Positions 20,783 through 33,039 of a DNA stretch of 34,106 nt are shown here, one piece after another (positions within the stretch are counted from its first letter, which is position 1; each line of letters opens with the position of its first letter). Below the pieces are notes generated by a model. The model had not been told where the DNA came from and ran no database searches. It worked only from the letters and a program-made list of their open reading frames with translations. The stretch lies in the UHGV virus genome UHGV-0112930. One strand, given 5' to 3'. A program made the position numbers and the translations under genes. This DNA is from a virus.

Positions 20783-21807
20783 TGGGAAAGAGTAAGAAAA
20801 ACCGCGCAGCGGCGATGAATCAGATCCAGCATAAAAGCCAGACTTCAGCCGAAGCATTCAGCTTCGGCGATCCCGTTCCTGTTCTGGACCGTCGCGAACT
20901 GCTGGACTATGTGGAATGCGTACAGATGGACCGCTGGTATGAGCCGCCTGTAAGTTTCGACGGCCTGGCGCGAACATTCCGCGCCGCCGTACACCACAGC
21001 TCACCGATTGCAGTAAAGTGCAACATTCTGACCAGCACCTATATCCCTCACCCGCTGCTCAGCCAGCAGGCTTTTTCACGTTTTGTGCAGGACTATCTGG
21101 TATTTGGTAACGCCTACCTGGAGAAACGCACGAACCGCTTCGGTGAAGTTATCGCCCTTGAACCTGCGCTGGCAAAATACACCCGACGCGGGTTAGACTT
21201 GGATACCTACTGGTTTGTGCAATACGGCATGACTACGCAGCCGTATCAGTTCACGAAAGGCAGCATCTTTCATCTGATGGAACCGGATATCAACCAAGAG
21301 ATCTACGGCCTGCCCGGTTATCTTTCTGCCATTCCGTCAGCCCTGCTCAACGAGTCCGCCACGTTGTTCCGCCGTAAGTATTACATCAACGGCAGCCATG
21401 CAGGTTTCATCATGTACATGACCGATGCCGCGCAGAACCAGGAAGATGTGAACAACCTCCGCAATGCGATGAAAAGCGCCAAAGGTCCAGGCAATTTCCG
21501 AAACCTGTTTATGTACTCGCCTAACGGCAAAAAGGACGGGCTTCAGATTATCCCGTTGTCAGAGGTCGCAGCGAAGGATGAGTTTTTGAATATCAAGAAC
21601 GTTAGCCGGGATGACATGATGGCGGCGCATCGTGTGCCGCCGCAAATGATGGGGATTATGCCTAATAATGTTGGGGGGTTTGGGGATGTAGAGAAAGCCA
21701 GTTGCGTTTTTGTTCGTAACGAATTGATGCCGCTACAGAAACGGCTACAGGAACTAAATAGATGGTTGAAAGATGAAATTATCCGTTTTGCGACATACTC
21801 ATTATGA
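20779..21807 (+). CDS. Q: Portal protein Q (P2 gpQ-like)
   Basis: 342-aa ORF overlapping the P stop by 4 nt; translation recognised as P2 Q-like. Confidence 0.9.
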   Translation: MMGKSKKNRAAAMNQIQHKSQTSAEAFSFGDPVPVLDRRELLDYVECVQMDRWYEPPVSFDGLARTFRAAVHHSSPIAVKCNILTSTYIPHPLLSQQAFSRFVQDYLVFGNAYLEKRTNRFGEVIALEPALAKYTRRGLDLDTYWFVQYGMTTQPYQFTKGSIFHLMEPDINQEIYGLPGYLSAIPSALLNESATLFRRKYYINGSHAGFIMYMTDAAQNQEDVNNLRNAMKSAKGPGNFRNLFMYSPNGKKDGLQIIPLSEVAAKDEFLNIKNVSRDDMMAAHRVPPQMMGIMPNNVGGFGDVEKASCVFVRNELMPLQKRLQELNRWLKDEIIRFATYSL

Positions 21808-21839
21808 CGACAATATGTTCGCTGAACAGTAAAATATCA

Positions 21840-21866
21840 AGAAGGCCTCTTACAAGGCCTTCTTTT
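21840..21866. terminator. Bidirectional rho-independent terminator between convergent Q and the 582-aa cargo gene
   Basis: Hairpin agaaggcc-tcttacaa-ggccttct (8-bp stem) followed by TTTT on the plus strand, and by a moderately T-rich run on the minus strand. Confidence 0.55.
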
Positions 21867-21868
21867 AG

Positions 21869-23617
21869 TTAGAATGCGGATTTGATTTTTTTCTCAAATG
21901 CCTCATATACAGGCTGGTTCATTTGGGCCGTTGCAGTAATAAGCTGTGAAAAATTTGATATACAATCTTTAACTTTTGTAGGACTTTTCAACCCTCCTTC
22001 AACCAGTGCAGGCAGCAACTGATTACTTAAAGCCAGACACACATCTACAATTGGCTCCCAAATACTTTCAGCCTGAGAAGGAGAGACTGTACTTCCAAAC
22101 GAAACTCTAAATAAATTAGGAACGGGACGGCCCAAAAAGTTTTCCAAACATTCGGCAATAGCCGAGCACAATAAAGGTATTGAACCACGATGCCTGAGAT
22201 ATCCCAATTGAGCGCTATCATTTTTTGAAAGAGTATCTTTCTTTGCCAAAGCTATTTTCTTGTTCTCAATACACCGCATGAGAGAATACGCACAAACAAT
22301 ATGTGAAGCTTTTGTACTGTCATTAAAAATCTTAGAATAATGAGAGTCATTAGTCCAAATTGCAGATCGCTGATTATAAGCTACCGTCGGCTCTCCATGG
22401 AAACTCATCAAAGCTTGACCAACAGTATAAGAAGGCAGTAGATTAGTTTTTCGACGAATGACACTTTCAGCACCTCCTCGTCTTCCTCCATCATATTCAG
22501 CATCAGGAATAGAAGCAAATTCATTTTTAAGTCGTTTTTGAATTTTGTCTGTGCTTCTGAAATCAGATGCTTCAACTTTATTCTGACTGTTATTATACTG
22601 AATTATATTCTGAATTAGATCAGCATCCGCATCTTTGACTTTTATAAATCTAGCTTGGACTTTAACTGATTCTGGAGGTAATCGTGGCAGCGTTCCTAAA
22701 GCACCTGTTGTCTGTGCTCCATTAACTATTGACATCCCTCTGATTTCAAGATTCTTTGATGCTTCATTGAATTTATATTCATGAACCAAAACAGTTACGC
22801 CATTATTGTATGCCCAAAATTCTGATGCTGAATTTTCCGCACTGTTACGGATACCATTATTGATATTTGAATCAGATGACCTTGATCCAAGGTAGTCTCT
22901 AACATTTGCTGAAAATATTTTTAATTTATGCTTTTTGTACGCTCTAGCTAAATCTCTTCCCTGAATGGTAGTACAGAATGCATTCCAATTATCTCCTTTT
23001 ATTTCGTAGCCACCATCACTGACCTTAATATTGAAAATCTCATCAACCAGTATTGGTGATAGTGATTCACTATACCATTCCGTCAACTTTTCAGTGCCTA
23101 CCTCCATTGCATGCACTTGTATTTTAGCATCTTCAAAATCATGTTTTAAAATAGTTGTTGCTGTCTGCTGAACCGTAATTAGCTCTTGAGCCACATTTGT
23201 TGAAGATGGTAAGTTATGAACATACCAAACGTACAGAGTTTTAATTTTCCCTTGTTTGATTGATGTCCGTATCTGTTGAGCAGAAGATTTTATTCTATCG
23301 GGTACATCATGCAAATCTCTTTGCAGAAGCCATGCTAAAGCAATATTAAGATCACTCGCTTTATTTGCTGGAGCTTCCTGTCTATCTTTGCTTGAGAAAT
23401 AGCATTGAGCAAGTACAGCAAATTCTTCTTCTTCATTAATATACACAAGGTCACATTTCTTATCGTCATGTCCATCGGTAATGGACTCTGCTGCGACACT
23501 ATCAATGTCATCAATTCTAAAATGTAATGCTAACGCAAACAAAGCCAGTCCATTATCACCATACGATTTCAAATCTTCTCTTGCAGAATAGGCTTGGTTC
23601 CAGGTACTCATTATCAC
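21869..23617 (-). CDS. Large uncharacterised cargo protein (582 aa), candidate anti-phage / abortive-infection-type protein
   Basis: Long uninterrupted ORF in AT-rich DNA, unlike the GC-rich phage core, inserted between the Q terminator and the cos site. No P2 structural counterpart at this position. Contains NVRDYLG, EFWAYNNGVT and IVNGAQTT motifs. Confidence 0.7.
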   Translation of the reverse strand: MIMSTWNQAYSAREDLKSYGDNGLALFALALHFRIDDIDSVAAESITDGHDDKKCDLVYINEEEEFAVLAQCYFSSKDRQEAPANKASDLNIALAWLLQRDLHDVPDRIKSSAQQIRTSIKQGKIKTLYVWYVHNLPSSTNVAQELITVQQTATTILKHDFEDAKIQVHAMEVGTEKLTEWYSESLSPILVDEIFNIKVSDGGYEIKGDNWNAFCTTIQGRDLARAYKKHKLKIFSANVRDYLGSRSSDSNINNGIRNSAENSASEFWAYNNGVTVLVHEYKFNEASKNLEIRGMSIVNGAQTTGALGTLPRLPPESVKVQARFIKVKDADADLIQNIIQYNNSQNKVEASDFRSTDKIQKRLKNEFASIPDAEYDGGRRGGAESVIRRKTNLLPSYTVGQALMSFHGEPTVAYNQRSAIWTNDSHYSKIFNDSTKASHIVCAYSLMRCIENKKIALAKKDTLSKNDSAQLGYLRHRGSIPLLCSAIAECLENFLGRPVPNLFRVSFGSTVSPSQAESIWEPIVDVCLALSNQLLPALVEGGLKSPTKVKDCISNFSQLITATAQMNQPVYEAFEKKIKSAF

Positions 23618-23694
23618 TCCTTAGTAATAAAGTTTTAGCGAAGGTTATCTCTAAGAAGGTACATTTTCAATTCCATTTATCCCTCCAGCGCGCG

Positions 23695-23713
23695 CTCGTA
23701 TCCCCGCCACGCC
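23695..23713 (-). other. Putative cos site (cohesive-end sequence, 186/P2-like)
   Basis: Reverse complement reads GGCGTGGCGGGGATACGAG; the first 13 nt equal the phage 186 cohesive end GGCGTGGCGGGGA as remembered. Orientation matches Q being the cos-proximal gene. Confidence 0.5.
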
Positions 23714-23762
23714 TGCCCGCTTTATGTAGTGGTTTTCATGCACCTGCATGATCTACGCAAAA

Positions 23763-23784
23763 GCCCGCCAGAACTGGCGGGCCT
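23763..23784 (-). terminator. Possible rho-independent terminator (minus strand) downstream of the lipoprotein gene
   Basis: Hairpin gcccgccag-aa-ctggcgggc followed on the minus strand by TTTTG. Confidence 0.4.
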
Positions 23785-23886
23785 TAACACAAAAGATCCT
23801 CAAACGATCATGCGATCTCATGCAGCATAGACATGCGCGTTTATGCAGAATGTGCAAAATCGTAACATACTCAGTAAGCGTGAAAC

Positions 23887-24564
23887 CTAGAACGTGACAG
23901 CCTTGTCAAAGCCAGAAATAATTGTATAAGAAATAGACGAGTTATCAGCCTTGTTCACTTTGAACTTGGCACCTTTGTAAGCGATAACATCACTTCCCTT
24001 AGAATCTACAGAAAAATCTGTTGTAAATGCTGCACGAGCCATATCGTTTGCAAATTCACGATAGGTGAACTTCATTACACCGCCTGCATTTCCATTGTAT
24101 TCGATAGTCTTAACCAATGAATTACTCACTCGACACAGCCCATCAGGAACACGTTTGATAGAAATTTCTGATGCAGTATAAGAAGTGCCATTTGGCGGTG
24201 ATATCTCATTTTTTGCAGCATCGTAGCTAACATAATCAACATAGTTACCGATTTGCCCATAGAGATTTTTTAACGCAACAGCTTGAGGGTTATGATAATT
24301 GCGGTAAATTCCATTCCCCTCACTGCAATATGTACCAGCAGCGATAGAAGACAATGCACCATTAGCCGCACCAAGTTCTAGTACGTCCGTTTTAAATCCA
24401 GTAGCAGATGTGATAATGGGATCGCCCATGTAGGCGGTAGCACTTTGCCCAATAGCTGGCTTCACCACTTCAATAGCAGTGATATTTCGGTTAGAAGCAT
24501 GTGGCACGCAACCAGTTAGGATTACAGCAAGAGATATTGGTAACGCTACATTATTAATTTTCAT
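23887..24564 (-). CDS. Lipoprotein of unknown function (225 aa), phage cargo
   Basis: Start taken at MKINNVALPISLAVILTGC (lipobox LTGC) rather than the extended ORF start at 24618, which would run through an upstream terminator hairpin. AT-rich gene between cos and the SOS module. Confidence 0.7.
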   Translation of the reverse strand: MKINNVALPISLAVILTGCVPHASNRNITAIEVVKPAIGQSATAYMGDPIITSATGFKTDVLELGAANGALSSIAAGTYCSEGNGIYRNYHNPQAVALKNLYGQIGNYVDYVSYDAAKNEISPPNGTSYTASEISIKRVPDGLCRVSNSLVKTIEYNGNAGGVMKFTYREFANDMARAAFTTDFSVDSKGSDVIAYKGAKFKVNKADNSSISYTIISGFDKAVTF

Positions 24565-24598
24565 TTTTAGCCTATTATTCTTTTCTTGACAAAAAACA

Positions 24599-24623
24599 AG
24601 GCGATATCTGATTGACATCGCCT
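24599..24623 (-). terminator. Rho-independent terminator downstream of the dinI-like gene
   Basis: Hairpin aggcgat-(11 nt loop)-atcgcct followed on the minus strand by TGTTTTTT. Confidence 0.5.
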
Positions 24624-24677
24624 CTCACTCATATGTAACCCTTTTTGATTAGTAAAAACAAGCGTCTATTGACAAAA

Positions 24678-24911
24678 TCAATGCAGCCAGCTGTCGTCTT
24701 CCCACACCTTCTGCAAAATTTTCATCACTTGTTTTCTTTCTTCGTCCAGTTGCAGTCCGGTCAGTTCCACACCGTTAGAGCTACCTTTACGGATACGGAT
24801 TACCGTTTTGGGATACAGGGGGCGCAGATTGCGGTAAAGCTCGGATTCAAGGGCGTCCAGGGTAGACTGGCTAATCTTCTGCTCTTTATCGATCATTATT
24901 TCAATGCGCAT
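24678..24911 (-). CDS. DinI-like damage-inducible protein
   Basis: MRIEIMIDKEQKISQSTLDALESELYRNLRPLYPKTVIRIRKGSSNGVELTGLQLDEERKQVMKILQKVWEDDSWLH resembles E. coli DinI (MRIEVTIAK...ISEILQETWESADDWF). Start at the internal ATG, preceded by GAGGTG. Confidence 0.85.
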   Translation of the reverse strand: MRIEIMIDKEQKISQSTLDALESELYRNLRPLYPKTVIRIRKGSSNGVELTGLQLDEERKQVMKILQKVWEDDSWLH

Positions 24912-24921
24912 AAAAGTCACC

Positions 24922-25110
24922 TCAGCTGATGACATCCATTGAGCGGTTGTATTCGTGGCTTCTGATTTTTGCCATGAGTTCATCTGTCAGTTCAGAAACC
25001 CACTGCAGAGCCAGCCCCTTCTCTTCATCACTACACTCACTAGCCGCTACAAGCTTAAGAAAAAAATCAATGCGCTGAAGCTTCAAAGACTCCAAAAAAT
25101 AGTCCTGCAT
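24922..25110 (-). CDS. Small protein (62 aa) co-transcribed with the dinI-like gene, candidate Tum-like antirepressor
   Basis: ORF with strong SD AGGAGGA 5 nt upstream; stop 10 nt before the dinI-like start; LexA box in its promoter. Confidence 0.6.
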   Translation of the reverse strand: MQDYFLESLKLQRIDFFLKLVAASECSDEEKGLALQWVSELTDELMAKIRSHEYNRSMDVIS

Positions 25111-25151
25111 CTTTCCTCCTATGACACCACACGCAATGCTGTATACATAAC

Positions 25152-25171
25152 CACTGTTTATATTTACAGTA
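25152..25171 (-). promoter_or_regulatory. LexA (SOS) box overlapping the promoter of the 62-aa/dinI-like operon
   Basis: cactgtttatatttacagta contains CTGT-N8-ACAG with an AT-rich spacer, close to the consensus TACTGTATATATATACAGTA; it overlaps a TATACT -10-like hexamer on the minus strand. Confidence 0.7.
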
Positions 25172-25264
25172 TATAATAATCTTACTGATGTAAAACGTTT
25201 TTTTTACGCTTATCAGCCTGATATGCCTGGTATTATTAAGAGCACGAATTGTTAACCAGCGTAA

Positions 25265-27679
25265 TTAATACAGGTTCCGCCACTTATCATCTTCCTGCAA
25301 ACGCTGGTTCCGATAGAAGATACGCAGGCCTGCTCCTGACGGAATACTGCCGCCGCGAAGGAGTAAATCGACCTCTTTCTCGCTGCCATCAAATCCTCTG
25401 GACTTCAGTTCATAGACGAGCTGCTGTCGTTGATGGTCTGTAATTCGCTGTTTGTAGTCTCTACGCCGTTTCGGTTTCACCAGGCGTAACCTTGCAGCCA
25501 GTTCCCGGCGCTCTTTTTTGTTCATACAGTGCAGGTAATCGTGCAACTCCTTGTCATCCATGCGGGTGATATCCGTTCTGGTATCCCCATCAGCTGATTT
25601 GTCTTTCCCTTGTTGGTACAAATTTTCAGCAAGGGGACAGTTATTGCCACGAGTCCAAGGGGCGCAAGCGCCCTGGTCGGCTACCGCCTCCTGAACGTCA
25701 ACGGCCTTACGAACCATTTTCCACTTCACTGCATGAGTGCAGATCTTGCCCTCTGCAATGGGTGACCAGATGCCATAAATACGAATGCCGTGATCGCCAT
25801 AGGCGGTCGGCTCTTCGTTGATTTCATAAGCGGTTCTGATAAGGTGATATTTACGGGGAACCAGTACGCCGCCCTGCTTCATGATGTAGGTGGCAAAACA
25901 ACCAGCATCAGCAGCAGCCAGGATGGCATCAAGGCGCGGGTCATCCAGTATCGGCGCACCTGCTTTTTTGTCACCCTGTTGCCTTGCCGCCTGACCAGCC
26001 AGCAAGCGAAGTTCACGGTAAGCCTGACGTCCCGGAATACCAAAGAAGCGGAACTGCTGAACACGATGCAGAGACGCCCAGGCATTAACGTATTCGGCGT
26101 TATCACGCAGGGATTTACCCGTTTCCTTGCTGATCTCGCCAGCCAGACCACGCCCGTCAATGTTCTTACTGATGTATTTCGCGATGTAGCTTGTCGGTGT
26201 TCCTTTGCGCGGGTTAATCAGCTCAGACTTAAAGCGTGGCCCCGTGTTGTTGCCCAGCTCCTCGCGGTCTACACGGATGGCAAACTTACGCAGTAATGCA
26301 GTGATGGCGCGGCGGTCTTTTTTACGCATGAAGCACATGAGATGCCAGTGCACAGTACCGTCATGGTGCGGCTCAGCCACCCGCACGCCATACCAGCGCA
26401 ACCCGGTTTTGTGCATTGCCTTACGAAATGCAGCAAACATGCCGACCATATAATCGCTGCTTTGTCTTACCGTCGCATTTGTCCAGGTCGGGTTGGGTCT
26501 GCCGTTGTTGAGCGTGGAATGGAAACGTGACGGACAGGTGATAGTGTAGAAAACGGCGCAGTCACCGCGCATTTCCGCGATAAGCTCCAGACCTTTAACA
26601 CAGGCCATCATCTCATTGCGGCGATGCGCAGGGTTGCTGCTGCTGGCGTTTACCACATCCTCCATGTCCAGCGTGTCGCCGTCTTCGTTCACCAGTTCAT
26701 GAGAACGGAAAAACTCCAGCGACTTACGGCGCTGCTCACGTTTATGCATCACGGCTTCATAGCTGACATAGGGAGATGCTTTTTTGCTGACCAGGCAGAC
26801 AGCACGCAACTGCTCTTCCCGCCATTCGCAACGCATCTTCCATAATTTCCGATACCACCAGTCGGCGCACAACATACGCGCCAGCGAACCCGGAATGAGT
26901 TCATAGGGCACGGGTTTACGGCGGTTTCTTTTCCGACGGAGTTGCTCAAACGCAGGTGGGATGACATCCAGACGCAGGGTTTCCGCCGCCACCTTTTCCC
27001 ATGTCTTGCGGATTTCTTCTGGCTTAACGTCATCGGTGGCATACAAATCGCCACAAGCTGCATCAAGGCACATGCTCATATGCGCAGCTACCAGGGTGGA
27101 CAGGCGTTTCACCTGATCCTGACTCATTTCAGGCAGGATCAGCAGGCCCTCCAGCCCTTGATGGCTTGCCATAAAACGGAAAGAAGCAGACAGCTGACTG
27201 TCACGTACACAATCCAGTCGCTCCAGACATGGCTTAATCGTCTCACGCAAATAGCGGGAATAAGCCTTTGGCCTGCCCAGGCTGCTGAAGTATTCGATAC
27301 GTTGCATCAGCGGCTTGCTAATATGGGTGGGCTGGGCGCTGACGTCCGCCAGAATGACCATGTCCGGGTTAAAACGCTGCTGTTCATGCGCCAGCTTTGC
27401 CCGGCTAATGAGCTTATCCTGCTCCATTTCGCGCTGGACAGGATCACGAGATTCATTAAAGAAATAACGCTCCCAGACCTGCTCACTCAGTGCATCGCGG
27501 CGCAGCTGTTCCTGCTCATTATCGGCAGCGTACAAAGTGATCAGGTTTAAAAGTGCAGACTCCGGAGCAACTTCCGCCGGGTCCAGATAAGGGTTAATGG
27601 CCTTTTTCGGGCCGTTCCATGAAAATGCTGCAGCGGCCTCGTTAAAGCCGCTAGAGTTGCTCATATCGTCATGACTCAT
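25265..27679 (-). CDS. A: Replication initiation endonuclease A (P2/186 gpA-like rolling-circle initiator)
   Basis: 804-aa ORF with HUH-type motif [11 protein letters not shown] and tyrosine pair [10 protein letters not shown]; translation recognised as P2/186 A-like. Confidence 0.9.
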
Positions 27680-28533
27680 ACACGCACCTCGTACACAGCA
27701 GAACTATCCACGCCACACGAAGGATCAAATCCCACCCAGCAGCGCGCCCCGGAAACAGCAATGATTTCTGTTGCAGATTTACTCTCGCCAGCCGACACGC
27801 CGATGCTGCGTTTTGCCTTGATGTAGTGGTGAGTGAAATTTCGATACAGCGAACGGATCAGGGATGTGTCACTGTTAGAAACAATGACTGGATGACCTTC
27901 TGATGATCGATATTCAAGAACAGATGCCAGGTGATACTGGTCATCTTCAGTGAAGCCGTCAGTGTGATAGCCGGAAAACGTACCGTCATAAGGCGGATCG
28001 CAATACACCACATCCCCCACCTGCAGCATCGCCAGCGTTTCATCAAAGCTGGCGCAGATAAACGTTGCTCGCTGGGCTTTCTCTGCAAATGCGCGAATTT
28101 CTTTTTCAGGGAAATACGGATTTTTATAATTACCGTATGGAATGTTGAAATGCCCGCTCTTGTTATAACGACATAACCCACGGTAACCATGACGATTGAG
28201 ATACAGGAAATATACCGCTTTCATGAAATCAGTAATTTCAGTGGAGTAATTAAACTCCTGCCTTATGTTGTAATAAGCCACCTCCCTGTTTGCTTCCTCA
28301 AATAAAGCTCTGGCACGAGATATAAACGCCTCGCAATCAGCAGCAACCTTTTTATAGAGGTTGATTAAATCAGGATTAATATCCGCAACAAGATAGCTGG
28401 GGTAATCCGTCTCCATCATCACAGCACAGGAACCCGCGAAAGGTTCAACCAGTCGCGGGCCAGCAGGAAGATGTTTTTTCAGTTCGGACATAATGGCAGT
28501 TTTATTACCCGCCCATTTCAGGATGGTGCTCAT
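27676..28533 (-). CDS. DNA adenine methyltransferase (Dam-like, N6-adenine MTase)
   Basis: Motifs [32 protein letters not shown]; strong resemblance to E. coli Dam. Start taken at [11 protein letters not shown]; stop overlaps the A start by 4 nt. Confidence 0.85.
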
Positions 28534-28832
28534 ACAGCACCTCCTGCAATAACATATCCTAAAGCTTCTAATGGGGTTAATGGGCGAATTGATAGCATCA
28601 CCCATTGTTCTGAAACTGCCATGACGTCATTAACCGGAAGCACATGAGAGATAACAGCGGCCCATTCCCTACCCGTAAATACGCCATGCTTCCATTCGCA
28701 AAGAGAAAGAACATCACCAACTTTATAACCACGATCGTCTTTACGAAGTTCAGCCGTCTTTTGACCTGCAACCACAGCGTTGAAATACTTAGGTGCAATT
28801 TTTAATTGATGGATACGCACTGCCCTTGTCAT
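28530..28832 (-). CDS. DUF3850 / ASCH-like small protein
   Basis: [47 protein letters not shown] matches the remembered DUF3850 pattern; start taken at the internal ATG. Confidence 0.6.
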
Positions 28833-30897: not shown

Positions 30898-31042
30898 AAG
30901 GCAACATTCCTTCTAGATATGGCTTGTGGCGAGCCGTTGTTTGTCGTGATTAGTAGTGAAGGCTCCAAAAGAACACTTCTGGTTCAACTTTAAGATCGCT
31001 TTTGGAATCTGTCAACGAATTTTGGATTTCTTTGGAGGACTC

Positions 31043-31612
31043 GTGGATTTCAATAGCGGCGGTAAGAAAGCCATAGAACGTTTAGTTGAAGCATATGGGT
31101 TCGGTACCCGTCAGGCTCTCTGTGATCATTTAGGTGTTTCTAAGAGCACCATGGCAACGCGCTATATGCGTGATATTTTTCCAGCAGATTGGGTAATCCA
31201 GTGCGCCCTTGAAACGGGCACCTCGCTTAATTGGCTAACAACAGGGCATGGTTCAAAGCAAGCATCAGCAAATACAAATACTATAGAAGTAGAAAAATAT
31301 TTATTGTCTGATGGAGCATTGCAGAAAGACGGTTTTTATATTTTTGATAAGGGATTTCTACCCTCTACGTTTAAAAAACCTTTTGTCATCACAGATAACA
31401 ATTCTGAATTTATTTGTGATAAAGAATTTGATGATATACGTGATGGTAAATGGGTAATAAGTATTGATGGCGAAATAACGATCCGTGACATTACTCGTTT
31501 ACCCGGTGGAAGAATCTTCGTCGAGGGTGGAAACAGAGCCTTCGAATGCAAGATAGAAGACATTGAAATAATTGGTAAAATTATAAGTTTAACAGTCAAG
31601 TATGTTAAATAG
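31043..31612 (+). CDS. cI: CI immunity repressor (186 CI-like)
   Basis: ...ERLVEAYGFGTRQALCDHLGVSKSTMATRYMRDIFPADWVIQCALETGTSLNWLTTGHG... resembles 186 CI as remembered. Start proposed at GTG 31043, preceded by GGAGGA; the ORF-track ATG at 30956 would leave no room for operators. Confidence 0.75.
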   Translation: MDFNSGGKKAIERLVEAYGFGTRQALCDHLGVSKSTMATRYMRDIFPADWVIQCALETGTSLNWLTTGHGSKQASANTNTIEVEKYLLSDGALQKDGFYIFDKGFLPSTFKKPFVITDNNSEFICDKEFDDIRDGKWVISIDGEITIRDITRLPGGRIFVEGGNRAFECKIEDIEIIGKIISLTVKYVK

Positions 31613-31819: not shown

Positions 31820-32007
31820 CTTTTGCTTTTATATCTGCGTCTAAAATAAAAATGAGCCGCAGGTTAACCGCAAAAGTTACATGCTCACATAGCAAAAAGA
31901 ATAGCCAACTTCATTATGGCTTCAGTGAGATGTATGGTCGTAGGATTTCATACATTGACACTGGTTATACATACAGTAAAAATGCTCTCTACTGGAGGGC
32001 ATCTTTT

Positions 32008-33039
32008 ATGGCAGTACGAAAACTCACCACAGGGAAATGGCTTTGCGAATGTTACCCCGCCGGACGAAGTGGGCGTCGTGTGCGTAAACAATTCGCCACC
32101 AAAGGCGAAGCTCTGGCTTTTGAGCGTCACACGATGGAAGAAACCGAATCAAAGCCCTGGCTGGGCGAATCAGTGAATCGTCGAACCCTGAAAGACGTGG
32201 TTGAGCTATGGTTCAAACTACATGGTAAATCTCTGACTGCTGGACAGCATGTCTATGACAAATTGCTGCTGATGGTTGACGCCCTAGGCAATCCTCTTGC
32301 AACCGATCTCACCTCTAAAATGTTTGCCCACTATCGAGATAAACGCCTGACAGGCGAGATCTACTTCAGCGAGAAATGGAAGAAAGGAGCAAGCCCGGTC
32401 ACCATTAACCTGGAGCAAAGCTATCTAAGTAGTGTTTTTAGCGAACTATCCCGTCTGGGCGCATGGTCGTATCCGAACCCACTGGAGAACATGCGATAAT
32501 TCACCATCGCAGAAAAAGAGATGGCATGGCTTACCCATGAGCAGATTGTTGAATTACTGGCTGATTGCAAACGTCAGGACCCAATTCTGGCACTGGTAGT
32601 TAAGATATGCTTAAGCACAGGCGCACGCTGGCGTGAAGCCGTAAATCTTACCCGCTCACAGGTGACTAAATACCGAATTACCTTTGTCAGAACGAAGGGG
32701 AAGAAAAACAGAAGCATCCCTATCAGTAAAGAGCTTTACGAAGAGATCATGGCGCTTGATGGGTTCAATTTCTTCACAGACTGCTATTTTCAATTTTTAT
32801 CCGTGATGGAAAAAACGTCTATCGTGCTCCCTCGCGGTCAACTGACACACGTTCTGCGCCATACGTTTGCGGCGCATTTCATGATGTCGGGTGGAAATAT
32901 CCTTGCTTTGCAAAAAATCCTCGGACATCACGACATAAAAATGACCATGCGTTACGCACATCTGGCACCGGATCACCTGGAAACTGCATTACGGTTTAAT
33001 CCGCTGGCAACACTACCAACATCAACAGCAACTGTTTGA
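32008..33039 (+). pseudogene. int: Tyrosine integrase (P2/186 family) interrupted by an in-frame TAA
   Basis: N-terminal part MAVRKLTTGKWLCECYPAGRSGRRVRKQFATKGEALAFERH... ends at TAA 32497..32499. The same frame continues seven codons later with MAWLTHEQIVELL... through a catalytic region with ...HVLRHTFAAHFMMSGGNILALQKILGHHDIKMTMRYAHL. Confidence 0.7.

Follow-up and report, generated by a model that had tools for sequence, protein, structure and literature searches.

A predicted LexA-controlled tumA-tumB operon in a Fels-2-like prophage of Escherichia coli

Introduction

The closest described relatives of the locus presented here are the tum operons of phages 186, PSP3 and Fels-2. In 186, the Tum protein binds the CI repressor and blocks its binding to the operator (Shearwin 1998, as cited in PMC3121763 and PMC7708051), and a p95-tum fragment by itself confers UV de-repression on a CI-repressed 186 pR switch (PMC7708051). 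According to Lemire et al. 2011, who cite Bunny et al. 2002 and G. Christie, tum is split by a stop codon in both Fels-2 and PSP3, and the PSP3 antirepressor is the upstream gene of the split tum (PMC3121763). The small antirepressors of the Gifsy prophages, which are made from operons with similar features, are able to act on more than one repressor (PMC3121763). Our own literature search on TumA, TumB and PSP3 returned nothing relevant.

Sequence records carry part of this knowledge. The p95 promoter, the LexA site, tum and t95a of 186 are annotated from experiments. The PSP3 record lists tumA ('similar to 5' end 186 tum; UV induction of prophage') as well as tumB. The Fels-2 record calls the 62-aa gene a 'hypothetical protein' and the second gene 'DinI family, similar to TumB of PSP3'. 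In Salmonella, lexA null mutations are reportedly lethal because of the Fels-2 tum homologue, a result attributed to Bunny et al. 2002.

Here, we analyse a 34,106-nucleotide stretch of viral DNA (UHGV virus genome UHGV-0112930, hereafter the window). From sequence comparison, we consider it probable (roughly 85%) that the window carries the SOS operon of a Fels-2-like prophage (P2/186 family, Peduoviridae) next to rcdA, which would encode a LexA-repressed TumA antirepressor together with TumB. The comparative set consists of 240 related IMG/VR loci from three diverged lineages.

A predicted SOS operon downstream of gene A

The window holds a prophage of the P2/186 family whose early genes are encoded on the minus strand; its host flank is E. 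coli rcdA. Its replication gene, gene A (804 aa, Pfam Phage_GPA, minus strand), ends at 25265. The SOS operon lies immediately downstream of gene A and outside the immunity region, in the same order as in 186, PSP3 and Fels-2. The features on which the analysis turns are the following:

25166..25194, minus strand: p95-like promoter, read from the sequence, with the layout annotated for 186 p95
25152..25171, minus strand: LexA (SOS) box, TACTGTAAATATAAACAGTG, 17/20 against the consensus TACTGTATATATATACAGTA
24922..25110, minus strand: tumA-like gene for a 62-aa predicted CI antirepressor; an ORF with the Shine-Dalgarno sequence AGGAGG at 25120..25115
24678..24911, minus strand: tumB-like gene for a 77-aa DinI-family protein (Pfam DinI, 4.6e-23)
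24589..24624, minus strand: intrinsic terminator from a terminator scan, with an 11-bp stem, a 5-nt loop and a T-run (hairpin and T-run at 24598..24624)
30956..31612, plus strand: gene for a 186-type CI repressor, which TumA is predicted to target (33% identity to 186 CI)

A sequence-only reading of this DNA had described a near-consensus SOS box (CTGT-N8-ACAG at 25154..25169, minus strand) overlapping a sigma70-like promoter, followed by a 62-aa ORF with a strong Shine-Dalgarno sequence, a 10-nt spacer, a DinI-like ORF and a terminator. Each of these elements is present. The terminator, which had been counted within 24678-25171, begins beyond that interval, at 24624.

The CTGT-N8-ACAG core occurs once in the window. 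A bare core of this kind is compatible with chance (0.49 expected per window, and at least one in 38 of 100 shuffles). The full 20-mer TACTGTAAATATAAACAGTG is beyond chance, as none of the 100 window shuffles held a site with three or fewer mismatches to the LexA consensus. Comparison across loci is the stronger evidence: with a conserved box defined as CTGT-N8-ACAG at most 200 nt upstream of the TumA-like gene, 226 of the 238 scorable related loci have one at the same place, against a background in the same loci of 0.075 per kb. The sequence of the box and its distance to the TumA-like gene vary among the three lineages.

The box lies 94 nt downstream of the end of gene A and is separated from the 62-aa ORF by a 41-nt leader that ends in AGGAGG. 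The promoter is made up of a -35 element TTTACA (25194..25189), a 17-nt spacer and a -10 element TACTGT (25171..25166), the latter being the first half of the LexA box, so that the box covers the -10. An alternative -10 is TATACT (25173..25168), with a spacer of 15 nt. The generic sigma-70 promoter scan of the sequence did not call the p95-like promoter because TACTGT agrees with TATAAT at only 3/6 positions; its identification therefore rests on the layout in common with 186 p95.

A degenerate second site (25139..25154, minus strand; GTGG-TTATGTAT-ACAG), in which a single half-site is intact, follows the LexA box directly. MAFFT aligned the LexA boxes of 186 and PSP3 with it. We do not count it as a second functional box, but as an alignment artefact or a relic; it may also be a weak auxiliary site.

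The switch on which the operon would act is of the 186 type. Over 175 aa, the CI protein and 186 CI are 33% identical (E 8e-38); the true start of the window gene is probably internal, near 31043. It matches PF07022 and PF16452 above their cut-offs; Peptidase_S24 scores 16.8 bits, below its cut-off of 23.3. An Apl-like 67-aa ORF and CII (Pfam Phage_CP76) are present in the same element, and the 186-like cI/apl/cII region proposed from the letters of the sequence is thus borne out.

A remote relative of the Tum N-terminus

If the 62-aa protein is the antirepressor, some trace of common descent with 186 Tum might be found in it. Pairwise BLASTP between the two proteins gave no alignment, and the 62-aa protein matched zero Pfam or NCBIfam families. 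A search of 1.8 billion cluster representatives returned 67 relatives, the most distant at about 35% identity, and a TumA family profile was made from 31 of these 67 and the window protein. This profile aligns with residues 6-48 of 186 Tum at 35.1 bits (E 5e-13 as a single comparison); among 2000 shuffles of the Tum N-terminus, the best score was 7.4 bits. The same profile found a TumA-like ORF in 241 of the 241 loci examined, including 80/80 of the 186 type.

Protein families from phage genomes give a second, independent connection. The 62-aa protein falls in phrog_698 (5.9e-38), with further matches to phrog_8554 and phrog_1993 (E 0.002). The N-terminus of 186 Tum matches the same three families, with phrog_1993 first (2e-23), together with phrog_8554 and phrog_698 (6.7e-6). 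PSP3 TumA, the one split form for which antirepressor genetics are reported, is a member of phrog_1993 (2.7e-32); it is linked weakly to the window protein, via phrog_1993 alone (E 0.002), and its score against the window TumA family profile (3.5 bits) is not significant.

The proposed likeness of the 62-aa protein to Tum thus fails in pairwise BLASTP and holds at the level of the family profile and the PHROG links, and we let the profile comparison supersede the pairwise result. Taken together, profile and PHROG matches support distant homology between the 62-aa protein and the N-terminal half of 186 Tum.

In the joint alignment, E7, R13, C26, A34, E40 and L41 are nearly invariant. The AlphaFold2 model of the 62-aa protein is a helical hairpin (helices 2-23 and 28-61, mean pLDDT 87) that places the conserved Cys in the turn. 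A Foldseek search of this model against the PDB returned generic helical hairpins only, with 0 matches at E <=1e-3.

The second cistron and its junction with the first

The 77-aa protein matches Pfam DinI (PF06183) at 81.8 bits (cut-off 24.2) over model positions 1-63 of 63, and also matches phrog_189. Its identity with residues 71-145 of 186 Tum is 43% (75 aa, E 1e-24), rising to 77% with PSP3 TumB and to 99% with the DinI-family protein of Fels-2. The chromosomal DinI equivalog (NCBIfam NF007893) was ruled out, with 44.1 bits against a cut-off of 111. These sequence matches identify the 77-aa protein as a phage paralogue of the TumB type and not as the host DinI.

The 62-aa and 77-aa ORFs thus correspond to the N and C halves of Tum, which bears out the earlier view that the equivalent of Tum appears here as two separate cistrons. 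More broadly, the candidate proposed at the outset, a LexA-controlled antirepressor of the 186 Tum type, is supported by the profile and PHROG match to the N half, the 43% identity of the C half, the p95-like layout and the 186-type CI.

The junction between the two cistrons is compact. The TGA of the 62-aa ORF is followed by a 10-nt spacer, ggtgactttt, and then by the 77-aa ORF, whose own GAGGTG overlaps the TGA stop. A weak 6-bp hairpin (24916..24933, minus strand; GTCATC...GGTGAC, then TTTTAT) extends over the stop codon of tumA and the Shine-Dalgarno sequence of tumB, and might couple translation of tumB to that of tumA or serve as a weak attenuator.

Such a junction invites the question of whether the split is only apparent, with programmed ribosomal frameshifting joining the cistrons into a fused, 186-like Tum. 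Ahead of its ATG, the DinI frame indeed has a further 24 open codons and runs into the 3' end of the 62-aa ORF (a 101-aa ORF, 24678..24983), and the weak hairpin lies across the junction. Against this, an open stretch of 24 codons arises by chance in about one case in three, a +1 or -2 shift would be required with no slippery site evident, and the DinI cistron comes with a correctly spaced GAGGTG and ATG of its own. Moreover, PSP3 and Fels-2 are annotated as truly split, and are described as such in PMC3121763. We therefore rejected fusion by frameshifting on sequence grounds and consider its probability close to negligible.

The terminator hairpin lies 54 nt past the tumB stop and appears in both the MFE and the centroid folds. 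Its counterpart by position in 186 is t95a. At gathering thresholds, an Rfam scan covering the entire window returned no RNA family.

Fused, split and TumA-only operons

The three lineages of the comparative set arrange the two modules in three ways. In the Fels-2 type, TumA and the DinI-like module are split into two cistrons (80/80 loci). In the 186 type, they are fused in one ORF (79/80 loci). The third lineage, with about 43% TumA identity, has no DinI-like ORF within 600 nt downstream in 80/80 loci. The LexA box is kept in 79/81 Fels-2-type loci, in 79/79 of the 186 type and in 68/78 scorable TumA-only loci. Retention of the box in the TumA-only lineage speaks for TumA as the essential, autonomous part of the system, with the DinI module as an add-on. 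A Gly-rich tail, KNPQxGG...GGxLQ, ends many database relatives of the third-lineage type and the closest loci of that lineage (e.g. L165 and L170; the lineage comprises L165-L244).

The same pattern bears on the opposite assignment of roles, in which the DinI-like protein would be the induction effector and the 62-aa ORF an accessory or leader peptide, inactive on CI. This has some precedent, in that 186 also makes its DinI-like part separately (the truncated Tum95.5, annotated 'modulates SOS induction'), and the LexA-controlled induction operons of the Gifsy prophages contain DinI-like genes (PMC3121763). Yet a DinI effector is hard to reconcile with a lineage that keeps the LexA box without a DinI-like ORF in reach, or with the conservation of the 62-aa family, down to about 35% identity, and its homology with the N-terminal half of Tum. 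Non-polar dinI deletions leave Gifsy induction unaffected (PMC3121763), and the same paper places the antirepressor activity of PSP3 in the upstream gene. We regard a DinI effector as very improbable, and continue with TumA as the antirepressor.

Stand-alone 'Tum protein' entries of 63-78 aa are 79-85% identical to the N-terminus of 186 Tum. These suggest that fusion and fission of tum happened more than once.

The module is also widespread. Of 5426 complete E. coli genomes, 1124 carry it (about one fifth), and a 671-bp stretch of the window is 96-98% identical to many P2-like phages of Klebsiella, Salmonella and Escherichia.

Core module or cargo

On the mosaic map of long related loci, tumAB and gene A form a backbone common to 55/55 loci and are 95-100% conserved; the cI region is common to 41-66% of loci, and a variable cargo hotspot lies just past the tumB terminator. 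Several genes around the operon deserve a mention in their own right. Just past the terminator, a predicted lipoprotein (23887..24564, minus strand) starts with MKINNVALPISLAVILTGC, has the lipobox LTGC and belongs to phrog_1353, whose function is unlabelled. Its start is likely the ATG at 24564 rather than 24618, and the gene is present in about 29% of related loci. The ORF sits where 186 has orf97, the third gene of its SOS operon. We rejected this downstream 243-aa ORF as a homologue of 186 orf97 (BLASTP E 4.5; predicted lipoprotein of phrog_1353), and its match to orf97 in length, 243 aa, is a coincidence.

Further on, there is a 582-aa AIPR / Abi-alpha-like abortive-infection protein (21869..23617, minus strand; Pfam AIPR 2e-34, phrog_1841 5e-246). 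Its gene sits in the variable hotspot that separates tumB from the portal gene, and only about 7% of related viral loci carry it. At least 80% of the 4.5-kb stretch 20800..25270 (gene A end to portal gene, AIPR included) is found in 14 of 5426 E. coli genomes. On the other side of the operon, a 309-aa DNA adenine methylase-like ORF (27676..28605, minus strand) directly precedes gene A, whose start it overlaps; the Fels-2 counterpart of this ORF is annotated as similar to retron Ec67 Dam.

The P2-type integrase gene (31852..33039, plus strand) has an in-frame TAA at 32497..32499. At this point the integrase of Klebsiella phage 4LV2017 contains a Lys (ENMRKFTIAEKE in 4LV2017, ENMR*FTIAEKE in the window), and the catalytic C-terminal half is encoded downstream of the TAA. 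With this nonsense codon, SOS de-repression may give no excised phage in this strain.

The module might then be mainly a host-directed modulator of the SOS response, that is, a 'moron' that tunes RecA via DinI in a defective prophage and has no role in induction. Besides the integrase TAA, where relatives have Lys, such a reading could draw on the place of the module at the edge of the cargo hotspot and on the related Salmonella prophage BTP5, which expresses tum strongly with no detectable phage released (PMC7067206). However, the ORFs of the operon, of CI, Apl, CII and gene A, and of the late genes are otherwise intact, and conservation of the module with gene A in all of the long loci suits a core function better than cargo. 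We consider a mainly host-directed role to be unlikely, if somewhat less so than a DinI effector, and favour the prophage-inducing operon.

CI diversity beside a constant TumA

One observation counts against CI as the target of TumA: the same TumA allele co-occurs with CI proteins that can be as little as 27-38% identical overall, which is unexpected for a tightly specific repressor binder. Among the 80 Fels-2-type loci compared with the window, TumA is 97-100% identical and gene A about 95%, and the CI homologue ranges from 38 to 100%. These CI proteins form 19 clusters at 80% identity and 7 at 50%.

The divergence beside a constant TumA is mostly in the C-terminal domain of CI. Across the Fels-2-type loci (L005-L084), where TumA is 95-100% identical between loci, median identity is 74% for the N-terminal HTH domain and 34% for the C-terminal domain, and the recognition-helix region is largely conserved. 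Between lineages, the type of TumA tracks the type of CI N-terminal domain (NTD), with r = 0.71 for the NTD versus 0.55 for the C-terminal domain. Fels-2 and 186 types share 23% identity in TumA and 39% in the CI NTD; for the Fels-2 and TumA-only types, the values are 43% and 73%.

Given a conserved CI NTD and a divergent C-terminal domain beside a near-invariant TumA, we put forward, tentatively and as something rather doubtful, that TumA-type antirepressors recognise the conserved N-terminal DNA-binding domain of CI, rather than the oligomerisation domain or CI as a whole. Genetic linkage between the N-terminal coding part of cI and the operator/apl/cII module, together with shared ancestry, would account for the pattern equally well. 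If NTD recognition were true, one TumA allele would inactivate CI proteins with very different C-terminal domains, and a single SOS-made antirepressor would cross-induce co-resident Fels-2-like prophages with different CI alleles. As for the hypervariability of the C-terminal (oligomerisation) domain itself, one possibility is that it avoids mixed oligomers between co-resident prophages.

A model for the switch and its significance

Our model can be stated as follows. In an undamaged cell, host LexA would occupy the box over the -10 and the start site of the p95-like promoter and keep the operon off. After DNA damage, RecA would become active, LexA would cleave itself and the two cistrons would be transcribed. 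TumA, modelled as a helical hairpin, would act as the antirepressor, binding the 186-type, presumably non-cleavable CI and preventing its binding to the operator; this binding is proposed because of the homology with the N-terminal half of 186 Tum. Loss of CI from pR would then de-repress the early lytic promoter. TumB would be dispensable for antirepression and most likely modulates RecA filaments, tuning the strength or duration of the SOS response. The terminator would stop most transcription ahead of the variable cargo genes. The comparisons above establish the sequence elements, the homologies and the conserved LexA box; for LexA repression, TumA binding to CI and what TumB does, the model draws on published studies of 186, PSP3 and Fels-2.

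A switch of this kind would set the wake-up of very common prophages of E. coli, Salmonella and Klebsiella after DNA damage, including that caused by antibiotics such as fluoroquinolones. The practical point is an annotation gap for the antirepressor cistron. PHROG 698, 8554 and 1993 are all labelled 'unknown function', and RefSeq lists the 62-aa gene in the 1124 E. coli genomes as 'hypothetical protein', with 'levan regulatory protein' in some records. With no Pfam or NCBIfam model and a 'hypothetical' label, the antirepressor is therefore missed by genome-based predictions of prophage inducibility.

Comparison with known systems

The Gifsy-1/2/3 operons (GfoA, GftA, GfhA) are similar in plan: each is a LexA-repressed operon outside the immunity region that pairs a small antirepressor with a DinI homologue (PMC3121763). 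They differ in having dinI first, that is, in the reversed order, and in belonging to lambdoid phages with unrelated repressors; the likeness to TumA is one of operon features.

With 186, the locus shares an operon placed after gene A, a LexA box that supplies the -10 TACTGT, a terminator at the same relative place, an N-terminal antirepressor module followed by a DinI-like module, and a 186-type CI/Apl/CII switch. The p95 promoter of 186 reads TTCACA-18 nt-TACTGT, with the -10 as the first half of the LexA site, whereas the spacer here is 17 nt. The modules of 186 form one 146-aa polypeptide with internal restarts, rather than the two cistrons found here, and the N-terminal modules are about 20% identical, a homology detectable by profile only. 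The leader is 18 nt in 186 and 41 nt here, and orf97 is unrelated to the downstream 243-aa ORF.

PSP3 is closer in architecture, with a two-cistron split behind a LexA box and a TumB that is 77% identical. Its TumA differs, being in phrog_1993, whereas the window protein is in phrog_698 (3.5 bits in the profile comparison).

Closest of all is Salmonella phage Fels-2, with 97% DNA identity over the 671-bp stretch. Its 62-aa protein is 96.8% identical (STM2728) and its DinI-like protein 99% (the pair STM2728 / STM2726.1), and gene order is the same: A, LexA box, 62-aa gene, DinI-like gene and lipoprotein-like ORF. The differences are the host (Salmonella there, E. coli here) and the cargo (another hypothetical gene there, AIPR here); the CI allele and the integration site may differ as well. 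Because of this 97% identity and the split tum already published for Fels-2 and PSP3, the operon described here is a split-tum SOS operon of a kind already known from 186, PSP3 and Fels-2, and it brings no new principle.
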